Shown one piece after another: positions 2,189-7,612 of a DNA stretch of 30,447 nucleotides. Position numbers and translations under genes: made by a program. The notes below the pieces were generated by a model that saw only the letters and a program-made list of their open reading frames with translations, had not been told where the DNA came from and did no database searches. The stretch is from the UHGV virus genome UHGV-0176192; one strand, given 5' to 3'. The stretch's first letter is position 1. Each line of letters begins with the position of its first letter. The DNA comes from a virus.

Positions 2189-2525
2189 AAGGAAACAAAA
2201 CAGAAACAACAATTGCCGTTATCTGTTGTTACCATGGCAAGTAAACGTATCTCAGGCGAGCGCATTGCGCCGTTCTGACGCAGATAAACTAGCCCGGATA
2301 GATGGTGCTGGCAATAAAAAATAGCGTTTTCTTATCGGTGTCGGTAAGATTGCTGCGGGTGCTTGAGGCTGTCTGCCTCGGGCATGCCACTGTAAGGCAG
2401 ACAGAGAAAAGCCCCAGTTAACATTACGCGTCCTGCAAGACGCTTAACATTAATCTGAGGCCAATTTCATGCTAGACACATGTAGGTTAGCCTCTTACGT
2501 GCCGAAAGGCAAGGAGAAGCAGGCT

Positions 2526-2681
2526 ATGAAGCAGCAAAAGGCGATGTTAATCGCCCTGATCGTCATCTGTTTAACCGTCATAGTGACGGCACTGGTAACG
2601 AGGAAAGACCTCTGCGAGGTACGAATCCGAACCGGCCAGACGGAGGTCGCTGTCTTCACAGCTTACGAACCTGAGGAGTAA
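2526..2681 (+). CDS. hokD: Hok/Gef family type I toxin (51 aa), closest by recollection to HokD/RelF
   Basis: Translation MKQQKAMLIALIVICLTVIVTALVTRKDLCEVRIRTGQTEVAVFTAYEPEE: single TM helix plus the conserved RKxLCE(V/I)R...EVAxFxAYE signature of Hok/Gef toxins. aaggag at 2511-2516. An in-frame upstream ATG at 2469 also exists. Confidence 0.85.
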   Translation: MKQQKAMLIALIVICLTVIVTALVTRKDLCEVRIRTGQTEVAVFTAYEPEE

Positions 2682-2751
2682 GAGACCAGGCGGGGGAGAA
2701 ATCCCTCGCCACCTCTGATGTGTCAGGCATCCTCAACGCACCCGCACTTAA

Positions 2752-2770
2752 CCCGCTTCGGCGTTTTTTT
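2752..2770 (+). terminator. weak intrinsic terminator downstream of hok
   Basis: acccgcttcggcg followed by a T7 run; short stem with ttcg loop. A degenerate copy of the hairpin at 3848-3874. Confidence 0.4.
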
Positions 2771-2896
2771 GTCGCATTATGAGGTTGTAATTTTAGCTAC
2801 CATTAGACTATCCTAAGGATCTAAAACAGATCTATTTTGCATCAAATTTGGCGCATGGCTTTGCCAATAATCGGAAAACAAAAAGGACTCATTAGT

Positions 2897-3128: not shown

Positions 3129-3338
3129 ATGTTTACAAGTGTTAAGTGCGGCATGTTGATTGCTGCTGGCTCTATATTGAACATATATCCGTCGGTATGC
3201 CCTGCTGCGCCCAGGAATCAGAGTGTTGACTCTGTTATGATTGGGAAGGACTGGAGCAAGGTTGGCGGTGATCTAACGAAAGCTATCGCATCATATGAGT
3301 CACAACAAAGCAAAGAAGAACAACGAAAAAACCGTTAA
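3129..3338 (+). CDS. hypothetical small protein with signal-peptide-like N-terminus (69 aa)
   Basis: ATG at 3129 preceded by gaggtga; hydrophobic N-terminus MFTSVKCGMLIAAGSILNIY. Weak call. Confidence 0.35.
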   Translation: MFTSVKCGMLIAAGSILNIYPSVCPAAPRNQSVDSVMIGKDWSKVGGDLTKAIASYESQQSKEEQRKNR

Positions 3339-3378
3339 TTCAGAGCCTCGTCAACTGAGAGCTGTTGATGAGGATGTT

Positions 3379-3831
3379 ATGGCCCGGGTCATGATGGAAG
3401 ATCCTGATTTACTGGAAAGAGTGAGTCGGCGCCTTCCCTTGGAATTAAAACGGGTTATAGTGTCGAAGATGACTATGTATAGCGGCCCATTGCCAGATCC
3501 AGATACATTGCTTCGCTATAAGCAAGTACAGGATGATGCAGCCGATAGAATTATAAAAATGGCTGAAAAGGAGCAAGCTCACAGGCATTCGACAGATCAT
3601 AAGCGTCTTGATAACGACAGAAAGGCTAAAGCTCTCGGGCAAATACTGGGGATTGCTTCAGTTGTTATGGTTTTAGCGTTATCTGCGTGGCTCGGATATT
3701 GCGGACATCCCGCTTCTGCAGCAACGGTGGCGACAGGGGTCACGGCCTCATTAGCTGCTGTTTTTGTTTTCGGTCAAAAATATAAAACCAAGCAGATGTC
3801 GCTTCAATCTAAAGATGAACCAGATGAGTAG
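3379..3831 (+). CDS. DUF2335-like membrane protein
   Basis: Translation contains YSGPLPDPDTLLRYKQV...DRIIKMAEKEQAHRH followed by two hydrophobic helices; this matches my recollection of the DUF2335 signature (SGPLPPP...L..Y...RI..MAE.EQ.HRH). Start uncertain: ATG 3379 (gagga upstream) or ATG 3295 (overlaps previous ORF). Confidence 0.6.
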   Translation: MARVMMEDPDLLERVSRRLPLELKRVIVSKMTMYSGPLPDPDTLLRYKQVQDDAADRIIKMAEKEQAHRHSTDHKRLDNDRKAKALGQILGIASVVMVLALSAWLGYCGHPASAATVATGVTASLAAVFVFGQKYKTKQMSLQSKDEPDE

Positions 3832-4219: not shown

Positions 4220-5269
4220 GTGCGGGTATTAGTTCGACCTGCCCTGGTACCGGAACTCGGACTGGTGGTGCTAAAGCCGGGCCGTGAATCCATGCAGGTA
4301 TTTCATAACCCTCGGGTGCTGGTGGAGCCGGAACCGAAAAGCATGCGCGGTCTGCCGTCCGGAGTTGTTCCTGCCGTTCGCCAGCCGCTGGCGGAAGATA
4401 AATCATTACTGCCATTTTTCAGCGATGAGCGGGTAATTCGTGCTGCTGGCGGCGCTGGTGCACTGTCTGACTGGCTGTTGCGTTATGTCAAATCCTGCCA
4501 GTGGCCTCATGGTGACTATCATCACAGTGAAACCGTCATACATCGTTACGGTACCGGTGCGATGGTATTGTGCTGGCACTGCGACAACCAGTTGCGTGAC
4601 CAGGCATCCGAATCACTTGAGCAACTTGCTCAACAAAACCTGGCAGCATGGATGATTGACGTCATCCGTCACGCAATAAGCGGTGCGCAGGAGCGTGAAT
4701 TATCGCTGGCTGAATTATCCTGGTGGGCTGTCTGCAATCAGGTGGCGGACGCACTACCGGAGGTAGTATTACGTCGTTCTCTGGGGTTACGTGCGGAAAA
4801 AATCCGCTCAATGTACCGTGAAAGTGACATCATACCGGGAGAGCAGACAGCCACCAGCATACTGAAGCAGCGCACAAAAAATATTGTGCTATCGCCTCAC
4901 GTCCACCAGCAACAGAACTCACCGCAGGAAAAGGCGGTGGTCAGCATTGCCGTTGATCCGGAGTCTCCGGAATCTTTCATGAGGCGACCTAAACGTCGCC
5001 GCTGGGTGGATGAGAAATACACTCGCTGGGTAAAGATGCAGCCGTGTGCGTGTTGTGGTAAGCCAGCCGACGATCCCCATCACCTGATTGGTCACGGTCA
5101 GGGAGGGATGGGAACAAAGGCCCACGATATTTTTACGCTACCGCTGTGCCGGGAGCATCACAACGAACTTCATGCTGATCCGCTGGCATTTGAAGAAAAG
5201 CATGGTTCCCAGATTGATTTAATTTTTCGTTTTCTTGATCACGCCTTTGCAACCGGTGTGCTCGGGTAA
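4220..5269 (+). CDS. DUF968-like prophage protein with C-terminal HNH-like zinc-finger motif
   Basis: GTG start at 4220 preceded by ggagg (4211-4215). C-terminus has CACCGKPADDPHHLIGHG...HDIFTLPLCREHHNELH. Size and C-terminal motif match my recollection of the DUF968 family (YdfU-type) found next to rusA/Q in lambdoid prophages. Confidence 0.7.
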   Translation: MRVLVRPALVPELGLVVLKPGRESMQVFHNPRVLVEPEPKSMRGLPSGVVPAVRQPLAEDKSLLPFFSDERVIRAAGGAGALSDWLLRYVKSCQWPHGDYHHSETVIHRYGTGAMVLCWHCDNQLRDQASESLEQLAQQNLAAWMIDVIRHAISGAQERELSLAELSWWAVCNQVADALPEVVLRRSLGLRAEKIRSMYRESDIIPGEQTATSILKQRTKNIVLSPHVHQQQNSPQEKAVVSIAVDPESPESFMRRPKRRRWVDEKYTRWVKMQPCACCGKPADDPHHLIGHGQGGMGTKAHDIFTLPLCREHHNELHADPLAFEEKHGSQIDLIFRFLDHAFATGVLG

Positions 5270-5281
5270 AAGAGGTTACTG

Positions 5282-5653
5282 ATGCGTATAGAGTTTGTTT
5301 TGCCTTATCCGCCGACGGTGAACACCTACTGGCGTCGTCGTGGCAGCACATATTTTGTATCAAAAGCCGGTGAGCGTTATCGCCGGGATGTGGCACTTAT
5401 TGTTCGCCAGCAGCGGTTGAAATTAAACCTGTCCGGAAGGCTGGCGATAAAGATTATTGTAGAGCCACCGGATAAGCGCCGTCGTGACCTGGACAATATT
5501 CTGAAGGCACCACTGGATGCGCTGACACATGCGGGGTTGCTTATCGACGACGAACAGTTTGATGAAATCAATATTGTGCGCGGTCAGCTCGTTCCTGGTG
5601 GTCGGTTGGGCGTGAAGATTTGCGAAATTAGAGGTGATAGTAATGGGGCGTGA
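5282..5653 (+). CDS. rusA: RusA-family Holliday junction resolvase
   Basis: Translation MRIEFVLPYPPTVNTYWRRRG...RRDLDNILKAPLDALTHAGLLIDDEQF carries the RusA PPxxN...RxDxDN...D(A/S)L signature; agagg RBS 6 nt upstream. Confidence 0.9.
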   Translation: MRIEFVLPYPPTVNTYWRRRGSTYFVSKAGERYRRDVALIVRQQRLKLNLSGRLAIKIIVEPPDKRRRDLDNILKAPLDALTHAGLLIDDEQFDEINIVRGQLVPGGRLGVKICEIRGDSNGA

Positions 5654-6008
5654 TATGTATGAGGTTTTAGACCGCTGGGGGGCATGGGCTGCAGCAGAAA
5701 ATAGTGGTGTCGATTGGCAGTCGATAGCGGCAGGCTTCAAGGGGCTTCTACCACACGGTAAAAAGTCACGCCTCCAGTGTGATGATGATGAAGGTATTAT
5801 GATAGACGGTTGTGTGGCCCGCCTGCGGAAATATAAACCAGAGGAATATGAGCTGATCATAGCTCACTTTGTTATTGGTATCTCATTACGCACTATTGCC
5901 AAGAAGAGAAGATGTTCAGATGGCACAATTAGGAAGGAATTGCAGACTGCCATGGGGTTTATCAGCGGTGTAATAATAACTATAAACCCCATTATGGTAG
6001 TTAATTAA
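5643..6008 (+). CDS. Q: late-gene antiterminator Q (short QuuD-like type)
   Basis: Translation MGRDMYEVLDRWGAWAAAENSGVDWQSIAAGFKGL...SRLQCDDDEG...GC..RL resembles the short Q family of DLP12-type prophages as I recall it; gaggtga RBS; located directly after rusA as in lambdoid phages. Start could also be ATG 5655. Confidence 0.75.
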   Translation: MGRDMYEVLDRWGAWAAAENSGVDWQSIAAGFKGLLPHGKKSRLQCDDDEGIMIDGCVARLRKYKPEEYELIIAHFVIGISLRTIAKKRRCSDGTIRKELQTAMGFISGVIITINPIMVVN

Positions 6009-6576
6009 TGTGAATCCTATCACCAAGATAGTATAGTCCAAAAAATGTTGAAACAAGCATTTGCCATGTAAGGAATAAAAAGATAATGATATAGCACCAG
6101 TTTGCTATATCATTATTCAGTATGTTTATTAGTGGTGTGATAAAAGCGTTGAAAATCACTATGCATATGCTGAGGGCAGTTAAAAATGAAAATAACATGC
6201 ACAGAAATAATCTTCTGGTAAGTTTCTCTTGAGTGTCAATAATTCTACCATTTTCTTTTGTTCGTGTAATTTTAATAAAAGGAGTGCCATTAGTTCCTAT
6301 CAGAGGGTAGTCAATTTGTTCTCTGTTGAAAGTGGCTATTGCTGCAAGAGCTGCTATATAAAAACCTGGCAGATTTGATACAAATCCAGATATAGACTTA
6401 ATAAAGCCGCCATCTTTTAGTAGGTCTGATGTAGGTATTTTAAATAAATAAAAGTAAAAAAAAGAAATCACAGCAAGCCCGGCAGGTGCATAAAAATCGT
6501 ATGCGCACTTACCACTAATTCCCTTAATGAAAAGGTAACCAAACGGTCTAAATAAATGTGAAAATATACTAATCAT
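6001..6576 (-). CDS. predicted four-helix integral membrane protein (191 aa), second gene of AT-rich cassette
   Basis: Minus-strand ORF; four long hydrophobic segments (e.g. AGLAVISFFYFYLF, FYIAALAAIATF, LFLCMLFSFLTALSICIVIF, CYIIIFLFLTWQMLVSTFFGLYYL); start ATG 8 nt after the upstream stop with GAGG overlapping that stop (translational coupling); visibly AT-rich. Confidence 0.7.
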   Translation of the reverse strand: MISIFSHLFRPFGYLFIKGISGKCAYDFYAPAGLAVISFFYFYLFKIPTSDLLKDGGFIKSISGFVSNLPGFYIAALAAIATFNREQIDYPLIGTNGTPFIKITRTKENGRIIDTQEKLTRRLFLCMLFSFLTALSICIVIFNAFITPLINILNNDIANWCYIIIFLFLTWQMLVSTFFGLYYLGDRIHIN

Positions 6577-6583
6577 ATTAGCC

Positions 6584-7612
6584 TCACATGACCTCGATAA
6601 TCTTATTCACAAACTCCATGTTAATACTATCATAAGAATCCTTTAAGCGCGAAGAAAAACCATTTATTACACTCTTTTTGATAAATGTTTTTTCCAGCCC
6701 ATCCAGCCTTACATTTGAAGTTTGAAGGTCAACTTGTCTTGTGAATCCTGTCTCTGGCTCTTTGAATTTTATTTTTATTAAGTCATAACCTCCATTTTTA
6801 TCTTCTTTAAAGAAGTTTGAGACAGATTTTATCCATCCAAGGACATTGTTGGGGCCATGGTTTGGTACTAAGCGTAAAGTACTTTCTTTAGGAATAATAG
6901 CCGCGTTAACATCTGGCGCATTAATAGTTCTGTATTCATTCTTTACCAAAACGACATCAGAAAGCCCTTCTTTATTTATTTTATTGAACAAATCTTCATC
7001 TAACTTTCCAGATATATCAAAGACTGGCCTGTATAATACTTTTATTTTTTTCTTTGTTAAACTTGATACTTCATTTGTTAAAGTGTTACATGAAAAGATA
7101 TCTTCATTATCTTTGGCTACGTTAAAGAGAACTTTATTCAGGAAACCATTTATTTTTGCTGTGGAAACTCCTGGTATTGGCATAAAACTCATGTCATACG
7201 TTCGCATATTTCCGTCTAGAGAAATAATCATATGAGAAGAAACTTCGTAACCTTCACCTTCCTCATGTTTTGGTGATATTTCGGTGCGAACATCTGTATT
7301 AATGTTTTTTAATACAGTGGTGCTTCCATTTTTATCTACAGCATTAATTAAAAGACCAAGATGGCTGGGTTTTTTATCGGCTCTGTTTGATAAGAATATT
7401 ACATCTTGTAAAGTTAAAACTAAGTCTCCTTTTTCATAACTGTGCATCATTGCTTTACAATGTACTATTTTAGAAGCAAGTTCACGCATTGTTGGTACTG
7501 GGCAAACACAGTTCGATCTGATGCTATCATCAATTTTCTGTGTACGGTATTGTGTATCGATCGTAATAGTATGATGAGTTATTACTCTACTGAATGCGTC
7601 CAGTGTAGCCAT
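6584..7612 (-). CDS. hypothetical soluble protein (342 aa), first gene of AT-rich cassette
   Basis: Long minus-strand ORF with K/N/D-rich composition, no obvious signal peptide or TM segment, no motif I can name; AT-rich relative to flanks. Confidence 0.7.
   Translation of the reverse strand: MATLDAFSRVITHHTITIDTQYRTQKIDDSIRSNCVCPVPTMRELASKIVHCKAMMHSYEKGDLVLTLQDVIFLSNRADKKPSHLGLLINAVDKNGSTTVLKNINTDVRTEISPKHEEGEGYEVSSHMIISLDGNMRTYDMSFMPIPGVSTAKINGFLNKVLFNVAKDNEDIFSCNTLTNEVSSLTKKKIKVLYRPVFDISGKLDEDLFNKINKEGLSDVVLVKNEYRTINAPDVNAAIIPKESTLRLVPNHGPNNVLGWIKSVSNFFKEDKNGGYDLIKIKFKEPETGFTRQVDLQTSNVRLDGLEKTFIKKSVINGFSSRLKDSYDSINMEFVNKIIEVM

Follow-up and report, generated by a model that had tools for sequence, protein, structure and literature searches.

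What does the small toxin gene in the early region of this phage genome belong to, and is it still in working order? The window analyzed here is the whole stretch of 30,447 nucleotides of virus genome UHGV-0176192. An initial annotation had marked a Hok/Gef-type toxin gene with a structured leader in its early region, and every feature listed there was found in place when the sequence was read. From our analyses, positions 2344–2771 very probably form a complete and apparently intact hok/mok/sok type I toxin–antitoxin cassette of the hokD/hokW subgroup, situated in the early (nin-type) region of a lambdoid prophage. The cassette is an already known element and the window holds an ordinary copy; it is not new, because similar copies are found in most E. 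coli genomes. As hok/sok is the textbook type I toxin–antitoxin system, and the hokD/hokW cassette has already been annotated in phages and genomes, the locus carries little weight as a discovery. Its main value lies in a correct annotation: mok, Sok, tac, fbi, ucb and dcb are mostly unannotated elsewhere, and automatic pipelines mark ‘hokD’ alone.

The toxin gene hok (2526–2681, plus strand) encodes 51 amino acids. Its assignment as a Hok/Gef membrane toxin was borne out by matches to Pfam PF01848 HOK_GEF (E 1.2e-23, 82.9 bits at a cut-off of 22) and to PHROG 251, ‘MokW-like host killing’ (E 2.8e-33); the NCBIfam Hok models matched the ORF below their cut-offs only (48.5 vs 73). The initial annotation had also placed the peptide closest to HokD/RelF, and indeed, at the DNA level, its coding sequence does not differ from that of K-12 hokD (relF). 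All of the best 80 IMG/VR loci that were kept encode the identical 51-aa peptide, and in 77 of these 80 the tac sequence is found upstream of hok. A Shine–Dalgarno (SD) sequence, AAGGAG at 2511–2516, lies 9 nt before the ATG at 2526, and its CAAGGAGAA is invariant in 41 of 41 aligned loci. HokD serves as a toxic control in recent work (bioRxiv 10.1101/2025.08.07.668861), and HokW was described as toxic, directed to the inner membrane and neutralised by sokW (PMC8621323). Given its identity to HokD and 92% identity to HokW, we infer that the window peptide is toxic as well.

Upstream of hok, an in-frame ATG at 2469 had been noted earlier but left open. It is the start of mok, a reading frame of 70 amino acids (2469–2681, plus strand) that runs in the hok frame and ends at the same stop codon. 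Its own SD, GAGG at 2457–2460, is located 8 nt before the ATG. A GAGG-type SD together with a start codon for mok was kept in all 77 viral loci with a leader; unlike these two elements, mok codons 2–5 and the reading frame are variable among the same 77 relatives. In 66 of them mok is in frame with hok, and in the other 11 there is a 19-aa ORF in another frame. Likewise in K-12, mokC is in frame with hok and mokB is not. Such a pattern agrees better with a regulatory role of the reading frame than with a conserved protein product.

The full-length hok mRNA would span 2357–2771 on the plus strand, i.e., about 415 nt, with its 5′ end at position 1 of the Rfam model and its 3′ end at a T-run. A search of the region against the Rfam hok/sok models, the check proposed with the initial annotation, gave a match to RF01794 at 2357–2531 that covers the full model (positions 1–157) with 118.7 bits (gathering score 59, E 9.8e-27), a score the same as or above those of K-12 hokC, hokB and 933W. 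Although RF01794 is named ‘sok’, it matches the hok-sense strand and in K-12 lies opposite to the annotated sokC and sokB strand; the match hence identifies the hok leader and not by itself Sok. Folding of the full-length RNA gave a minimum free energy (MFE) of −170.3 kcal/mol, with a z-score of −6.55 vs shuffles. The earlier proposal of a structured hok leader is thus supported by the Rfam match, by the fold z-score and by covariation.

A hok promoter −10 element, TAAGAT, is found at 2345–2350 on the plus strand, 7 nt before the transcript start at 2357. At the position of a TTG-type −35 the window reads TAGCGT (2322–2327). Relatives carry TAGAAT as the hok −10, with TTGCGG or TTGGCG ahead of it. 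Both the −10 element and the start of the hok transcript are conserved among relatives; however, the sequence upstream of the window −10 differs from that of most of them and lacks their TTG −35, and this upstream flank is common to only 26 genomes. At the other end of the transcript, the hok terminator (2752–2771, plus strand) appears weakened, reading CCCGC-UUCG-GCGUU plus a T-run where relatives read GCGGG. Its hairpin, GCGTTTTTTT, is predicted at −2.4 kcal/mol vs −9.2 kcal/mol for the usual GCGGGTTTTT, and the variant occurs in only 2 of the best 80 IMG/VR viral loci. As the terminator hairpin is down to 3 bp, the mRNA 3′ end and therefore the timing of processing may differ from that of relatives. 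A sigma-70 and terminator consensus scan of 2100–2900 missed the hok promoter, the Sok promoter and the hok terminator, since the promoters are non-consensus and the terminator stem has only 3 bp. These sites were therefore placed by homology to annotated and mutated ones.

Covariation points to a maintained RNA structure. In an alignment of 41 sequences, the named helices were 96.8% paired, compared with 38–46% when the partners were slid, a control that somewhat favours the structure because the window itself served to derive it. Both partners change in eleven pairs, vs 3.1 in shuffles, and three of these eleven fall in the 9-bp inverted repeat. Helix 1, formed by tac and fbi, was 97.6% paired, with both partners altered in two of its pairs. 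When plasmid and chromosomal relatives were searched for duplexes, the fbi partners were seen to change together with tac, for example GGCGCUU / GAAGCGCC in Klebsiella plasmids and GGGUGCCUGAGA / UCUCAUGGCACCC in hokB. For K-12 hokC, the duplex search returned an ‘fbi’ that is invalid, with IS186 lying 20 nt after hokC, and this locus was left out of the alignment for that reason. In a Citrobacter plasmid locus, the same search found no convincing fbi within 470 nt.

The elements of the RNA switch can all be placed on the plus strand. The translational activator element tac, GGGUGCUUGAGG, occupies 2357–2368 and pairs either with the fold-back inhibitory element fbi in the MFE fold or with ucb in the fold of the RNA truncated at 2716. 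The fbi element is CCUCAA-C-GCACCC at 2731–2743, and the tac/fbi duplex comprises 12 bp with one bulge (−21.5 kcal/mol). The anti-SD box ucb (AAGCCCCAG, 2409–2417) switches partners, from the mok SD region when the RNA is closed to tac when it is open; its GCCCC is invariant in 41 of 41 aligned loci. Equally invariant among the 41 loci is the GCCTC of dcb (GCCUC in the RNA, 2490–2494), which in the open form pairs with GAGGC at 2457–2461 in the mok SD region.

The 9-bp inverted repeat reported earlier, ctgtctgcc (2369–2377) and ggcagacag (2396–2404), is a conserved 5′ hairpin stacked beside tac. In the fold it spans 2369–2404 on the plus strand with ten pairs, 2369–2378 with 2395–2404, and corresponds to helix 2 of the alignment, in which 97.1% of cells are paired and both partners change in 3 of the 10 pairs. 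The initial annotation had assumed that hairpins of the leader hide the ribosome-binding site. The structured leader stands, but the 9-bp repeat itself hides no ribosome site; it is ucb that covers the mok SD. The palindrome GGCATGCC in the loop of the repeat (2381–2388) was considered as a functional site and rejected: most relatives read GGCATGAACAC, and since it is not conserved, it is probably incidental.

Three conformational states, nascent, closed full-length and open truncated, are recovered in silico, and they are those described for R1 hok (PMC9841398). For nascent RNAs of 29, 39 and 54 nt, the predicted MFE structure is a hairpin at 2359–2385 on the plus strand that contains tac and forms eleven pairs (2359–2369 with 2375–2385, GUGCUUGAGGC / GCCUCGGGCAU). 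This metastable 5′ hairpin corresponds to the transient structure of R1 hok (PMC9841398). In the fold of the full-length RNA, tac is paired with fbi and ucb (2411–2417) with the mok SD region (2455–2461), and a stem-loop, GGCGGGGGA-GAAA-UCCCUCGCC, is formed at 2689–2710 on the plus strand. The latter is helix 5 of the 41-sequence alignment, with two pairs that change on both sides, and by analogy it would presumably be the hairpin with which the processed, truncated mRNA ends; in R1 hok, mutating the equivalent 3′ hairpin led to loss of function (PMC9841398). When the RNA is truncated at 2716, the fold combines tac/ucb (2357–2364 with 2409–2415) and SD/dcb (2457–2461 with 2490–2494) with a Sok-target hairpin at 2463–2488. 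This target hairpin, seen in the fold of 2357–2716 and also a hairpin in the Rfam consensus, carries the plus-strand loop CUAGACA (2472–2478), in which a CUAG motif of the YUNR type comes first. In the full-length RNA, the closed form is 11 kcal/mol better than the open form; upon truncation at 2712–2720, the closed and the open tac/ucb forms lie at most 0.5 kcal/mol apart. These energies speak for a switch. The open conformation was the MFE structure for only one of five trial 3′ ends, so that the prediction is a near-tie and not a forced switch.

An antisense Sok-like RNA had been proposed as well, and a Sok gene on the opposite strand is supported by mapping of 933W sokW and K-12 sokC, by its fold and by promoter identity. 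In 933W, sokW is annotated with 71 nt, which correspond to window positions 2477 to 2407, and K-12 sokC, with its 5′ end 8 nt inside mokC, leads to the same 5′ end at 2477. Sok would thus be an RNA of about 70 nt (2407–2477, minus strand), beginning with a single-stranded 5′ tail that is the complement of the mok start and the target loop and continuing into a long terminator hairpin and a U-rich tail. The Sok strand folds with −30.6 kcal/mol (z −5.53). At 2422/2449 and 2423/2448, the plus strand has C·A and A·C mismatches where the minus strand forms G·U wobbles, which makes for a better stem in Sok than in the hok mRNA. The second hairpin of the initial annotation, gcgtc (2428–2432) and gacgc (2439–2443), is the tip of this Sok terminator stem. 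The Sok promoter (2484–2512, minus strand) has a −35 of TTGCCT (2512–2507), a spacer of 17 nt and a −10 of TAACCT (2489–2484), and is identical in sequence to the sokW promoter of 933W/Sp5. In Sp5, primer YO-421 mutates the Sok −10, and the promoter-less construct lost the antitoxin protection against HokW (PMC8621323). As judged from the sequence, the window thus carries a putative cis-antisense Sok gene with its own promoter and terminator that overlaps the mok start.

Among loci with an identical Hok peptide, diversity peaks at 2465–2476, where the 5′ end of Sok, the loop of the target hairpin and codons 2–5 of mok coincide. The 77 loci, all with the identical peptide, have 17 alleles of the Sok tail/target segment, and the common alleles show a median of 6 differences in 16 nt. 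The loci compared for diversity were picked by peptide identity, and the low diversity of the coding sequence is partly due to this selection.

The neighbourhood of the cassette is that of a lambdoid early region, and all neighbours listed here are, like hok, on the plus strand. An HNH protein (658–1113) is followed by phage ORFs of unknown function, and the terminator scan placed a strong terminator-like hairpin at 2156–2188, upstream of the cassette. Downstream follow genes for DUF2335 (3295–3831), DUF968 (4220–5269), RusA (5282–5653), Q (5634–6008) and a DNA methylase (8222–9268), plus two tRNAs; beyond the methylase and the tRNAs lie terminase, head and tail genes related to those of mEp460 and cdtI phages. 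The early-region location proposed initially is hence confirmed as a nin-type region upstream of DUF968, RusA and Q. Equally, no relBE pair lies upstream, where the ORFs are phage proteins of unknown function, in agreement with a standalone module. A relBE-linked (relBEF) hokD arrangement was rejected on this ground and in view of the full leader.

The cassette is widespread. By megablast it was found in 102 phage records at 80–99% identity, including 933W and VT2-Sakai, where it is annotated as mokW/hokW/sokW. It is present in 4724 of 5426 complete E. coli genomes (~87%), in a median of 2 places per genome and a maximum of 9, and also on many plasmids. A full-length cassette match above ~96–97% was found neither among the complete E. 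coli genomes listed nor among the phage records; a full copy in Shigella flexneri is 96.9% identical to the window. In the alignment, E. coli M8, 933W and a Rac-type prophage share with the window a single conserved block that extends from about 2344, at the −10, to about 2757.

How might the cassette work? Its anatomy can be read from the window; we infer its dynamics from plasmid R1 hok/sok and Sp5 hokW-sokW. The weak promoter with its −10 at 2345–2350 would give rise to the hok mRNA of ~415 nt. While the RNA is nascent, the 5′ tac would be kept in the metastable hairpin 2359–2385. In the finished RNA, tac would pair with fbi and ucb would cover the mok SD, allowing neither translation nor Sok binding. 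Slow trimming from the 3′ end back to the 2689–2710 hairpin would then remove fbi, upon which tac would pair with ucb and the mok SD with dcb, and the target hairpin 2463–2488 would form. A constitutive, short-lived Sok could capture this processed RNA, and the duplex would be destroyed. If Sok were lost, mok would be translated from the ATG at 2469; its translation would drive that of Hok, and the 51-aa peptide would damage the inner membrane. The 3′ exonucleolytic processing, the RNase III cleavage of the Sok duplex and the short half-life of Sok are presumed here by analogy with the published systems (PMC9841398, PMC8621323).

By analogy with Sp5, the role of the cassette is likely the release of Hok when Sok disappears at prophage induction, helping lysis; prophage addiction or phage exclusion are possible alternative roles. 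The published role of hokW-sokW is to help lysis and phage release at induction: HokW is released at RecA-dependent induction after sokW RNA has vanished, growth arrest is faster and phage release is doubled (PMC8621323). What causes the loss of sokW at induction was left unexplained by the authors (PMC8621323). We may speculate, with low confidence, that diversifying selection acts on 2462–2483 and that Hok is released through early read-through, the two readings being linked. If so, the diversity of Sok tail and target could create orthogonal Sok–hok specificity classes, and co-resident copies on different prophages would be spared mutual neutralisation. The read-through part draws on the missing hok −35, the crippled terminator and the sense orientation downstream of the early operon. 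Antiterminated early transcription at induction might then run on across the cassette and block the Sok promoter, which is convergent with it; such occlusion would explain the loss of sokW RNA at Sp5 induction. The hypervariable Sok recognition segment, the replaced −35 and the weakened terminator are side observations that could serve studies of Sok specificity and of Hok release at prophage induction.

The same changes in the hok promoter and terminator could also be read as signs of decay. In that case the cassette would look intact but never be expressed at toxic levels, being carried along with mobile phage DNA like several chromosomal hok loci. Its hok gene lacks a TTG −35, compared with most relatives the stretch ahead of the −10 has been exchanged, the terminator is crippled, and K-12 hokD itself is a truncated remnant. 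Moreover, chromosomal hokA, hokB and hokC were reported to be without post-segregational killing, and chromosomal hok loci not to be activated by rifampicin, according to the literature as quoted in bioRxiv 10.1101/2025.08.07.668861. Against a silent relic, however, all regulatory elements are present and pair as expected, the peptide matches a toxic one exactly, the Sok promoter has the same sequence as a functional one, the hok −10 and transcript start are conserved, and hokW-sokW, at 93% identity, works in a prophage. We hence regard silence as improbable.

An intact cassette may, on the other hand, serve purposes other than lysis. It could kill cells that lose the prophage or the region, if a stable hok mRNA outlives Sok as in R1 post-segregational killing. 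This would agree with the anatomy shared with R1 hok/sok, down to a closed mRNA that is stable and a switch that activates slowly (PMC9841398), and with a roughly four-fold enrichment of hok genes in prophages (bioRxiv 10.1101/2025.08.07.668861). Yet deletion of hokW-sokW from Sp5 had no effect on growth, the Sp5 phenotype was measured at induction and not at prophage loss (PMC8621323), and the chromosomal hok loci tested gave no post-segregational killing, as cited in the same preprint; addiction therefore seems a rather doubtful explanation. The decay of Sok would also suit a response to transcription shut-off: a lytic phage shutting off host transcription would let Sok decay, and Hok would kill the cell, protecting the lysogen population by abortive infection or exclusion. 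R1 hok/sok on a high-copy plasmid cut T4 plating by 42% and also plaque size, in work cited in PMC8621323, but the effect on T4 is weak and was seen only at high copy number. With no defence genes identified adjoining the cassette, we consider such a defence role quite unlikely.

Of the known systems, hokW-mokW-sokW of 933W and Sakai prophage 5 (AF125520; PMC8621323) is 93.1% identical to the window at the nucleotide level over 405 nt. Like the window, 933W has tac, ucb, the mok start, dcb, fbi and an in-frame mok of 70 amino acids, and its carrier is a lambdoid prophage; even the same 27-aa hydrophobic ORF is found upstream of the cassette. The Sok 5′ tail and target loop, in contrast, differ at 6 of 16 nt, and the hok promoter has TAGAAT and TTGCGG in 933W compared with TAAGAT and no TTG in the window. 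The homology begins only about the −10, and the sequence after fbi is different. Also the position differs: the 933W cassette follows the tail genes at the extreme right of the map, whereas the window copy lies upstream of DUF968, RusA and Q and not at the hokW-type position at the prophage right end, adjoining the L0139–L0141 genes.

A closer match in position is given by the hok/mok locus of a Rac-type prophage (MN652886), which is 92.5% identical over the whole cassette and is located, as in the window, between the early genes and Q; the Qin position is likewise the same. The Rac-type mok does not share the hok frame, owing to an insertion of 1 nt ahead of the hok SD, and the Sok tail is of another allele. 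Plasmid-borne ‘hokD’ (e.g., NZ_MG288678) is 88% identical over the whole cassette. More distant are hok/mok/sok (parB) of plasmid R1 and related plasmid loci, which share the same architecture and the same RNA elements. Plasmid relatives such as pHCM1 and the Klebsiella plasmids match the same Rfam model at 89–107 bits and keep the tac/fbi pairing through compensatory changes. Nevertheless, the window Hok is only ~31–46% identical to the plasmid Hok peptides aligned; for HokW and R1 Hok, the published identity is 44% (PMC8621323). The plasmid loci have other leader insertions and deletions and are plasmid-borne, whereas the window copy is on a prophage. In the window, mok is in the hok frame.

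A further comparison is with K-12 hokD (relF) in the Qin cryptic prophage. Beyond the identical coding sequence, the 3′ UTR is nearly identical, the homology extending from window position 2512 to ~2772, and in both prophages a DUF968 (ydfU-like) gene lies downstream of hokD. K-12 hokD retains the strong GCGGG terminator stem, unlike the window. In K-12, however, the gene sits behind relBE, without a hok promoter, tac, ucb, the mok start or a Sok gene, and gives no Rfam match. As the homology to K-12 starts only at 2512, the window carries in full a locus of which K-12 retains the 3′ half alone, and displays what the truncated hokD looked like before relBE displaced the 5′ half.

Diversity within the hok/mok/sok cassette is concentrated at the site of Sok recognition. 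We compared the window with 77 viral loci that retain the leader, taken from the best 80 IMG/VR loci kept (L015-L094) and all encoding the identical Hok peptide. Across these 77 loci, positions 2462-2483 are hypervariable, a segment that comprises the Sok 5' tail, its target loop and mok codons 2-5. The Sok-tail segment occurs in 17 alleles among the 77 loci, the common ones differing from one another by a median of 6 per 16 nt, and the window-type allele is found in 7/77. Sok-tail alleles may act as Sok-hok specificity classes in genomes that carry multiple copies. A Shigella flexneri stretch (L005, CP182557) contains two hok cassette copies within 8 kb. Its complete copy shares 96.9% identity with the window; the second is partial, with only the leader, which is 94% identical and carries exactly the window-type Sok-tail allele.

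Strand assignment at such loci requires care with Rfam model RF01794. Although named 'sok antitoxin', it is built on the hok-sense strand and spans the leader between position +1 and the hok AUG (2357-2531 in the window). In K-12 (L013, L014), its matches fall on the other strand from the genes annotated as sokC and sokB, and strand calls made from RF01794 would therefore mislead.

At its left edge, the hok promoter (2322-2350) has a -10 element TAAGAT and no TTG -35 element, whereas most relatives feature TTGCGG or TTGGCG, followed by a 16-17-nt spacer and TAGAAT. The locus types become homologous only from about the -10 element rightward, as if a left recombination boundary of the cassette cut through the hok promoter. 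At the other end, the hok terminator stem (2752-2771) forms three base pairs versus five in relatives, with an arm reading GCGTT instead of GCGGG and a predicted hairpin energy of -2.4 kcal/mol versus -9.2 kcal/mol for the relatives' form. This weakened variant is common to only 2 of the 80 related loci and could lead to read-through or altered 3' processing.

In the Hok coding region, the Tyr47 codon TAC is followed by G (2664-2667), and TACGAA is almost invariant across the alignment. UACG is the target motif of TadA. The introduction of a bioRxiv survey describes A-to-I editing of hokB by TadA, with Tyr recoded to Cys, and mentions a similar phenomenon for hokC, hokD and hokE (10.1101/2025.08.07.668861).

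Upstream of the cassette, a plus-strand ORF (2068-2151) encodes a hydrophobic 27-aa peptide, MTWPEAFTTVGIAMAVALMVYSICRWG; its start overlaps the stop of ORF 1508-2071 via ATGA. A search for a family match to this ORF gave none, and it also occurs close upstream of the hok cassettes of Stx2 phage 933W, E. coli M8 and 14/80 viral loci. The upstream early ORFs are set apart from the cassette by a strong hairpin of 13 bp (2156-2188), which is bordered by runs of A and T and looks like a bidirectional terminator; this hairpin is missing from the equivalent position in 933W.

Further downstream, two minus-strand ORFs sit between Q (5634-6008) and the late genes. These ORFs (6001-6576 and 6584-7612, the latter encoding 342 aa that match PHROG 9879, of unknown function, E 1e-202) look like a moron-type insertion. 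Genes for tRNA-Thr (tgt) and tRNA-Gly (tcc) lie side by side at 9437-9590; they follow Q and a DNA methylase gene (8222-9268) and precede the lysis/terminase region, the position at which Stx phages have their tRNAs.
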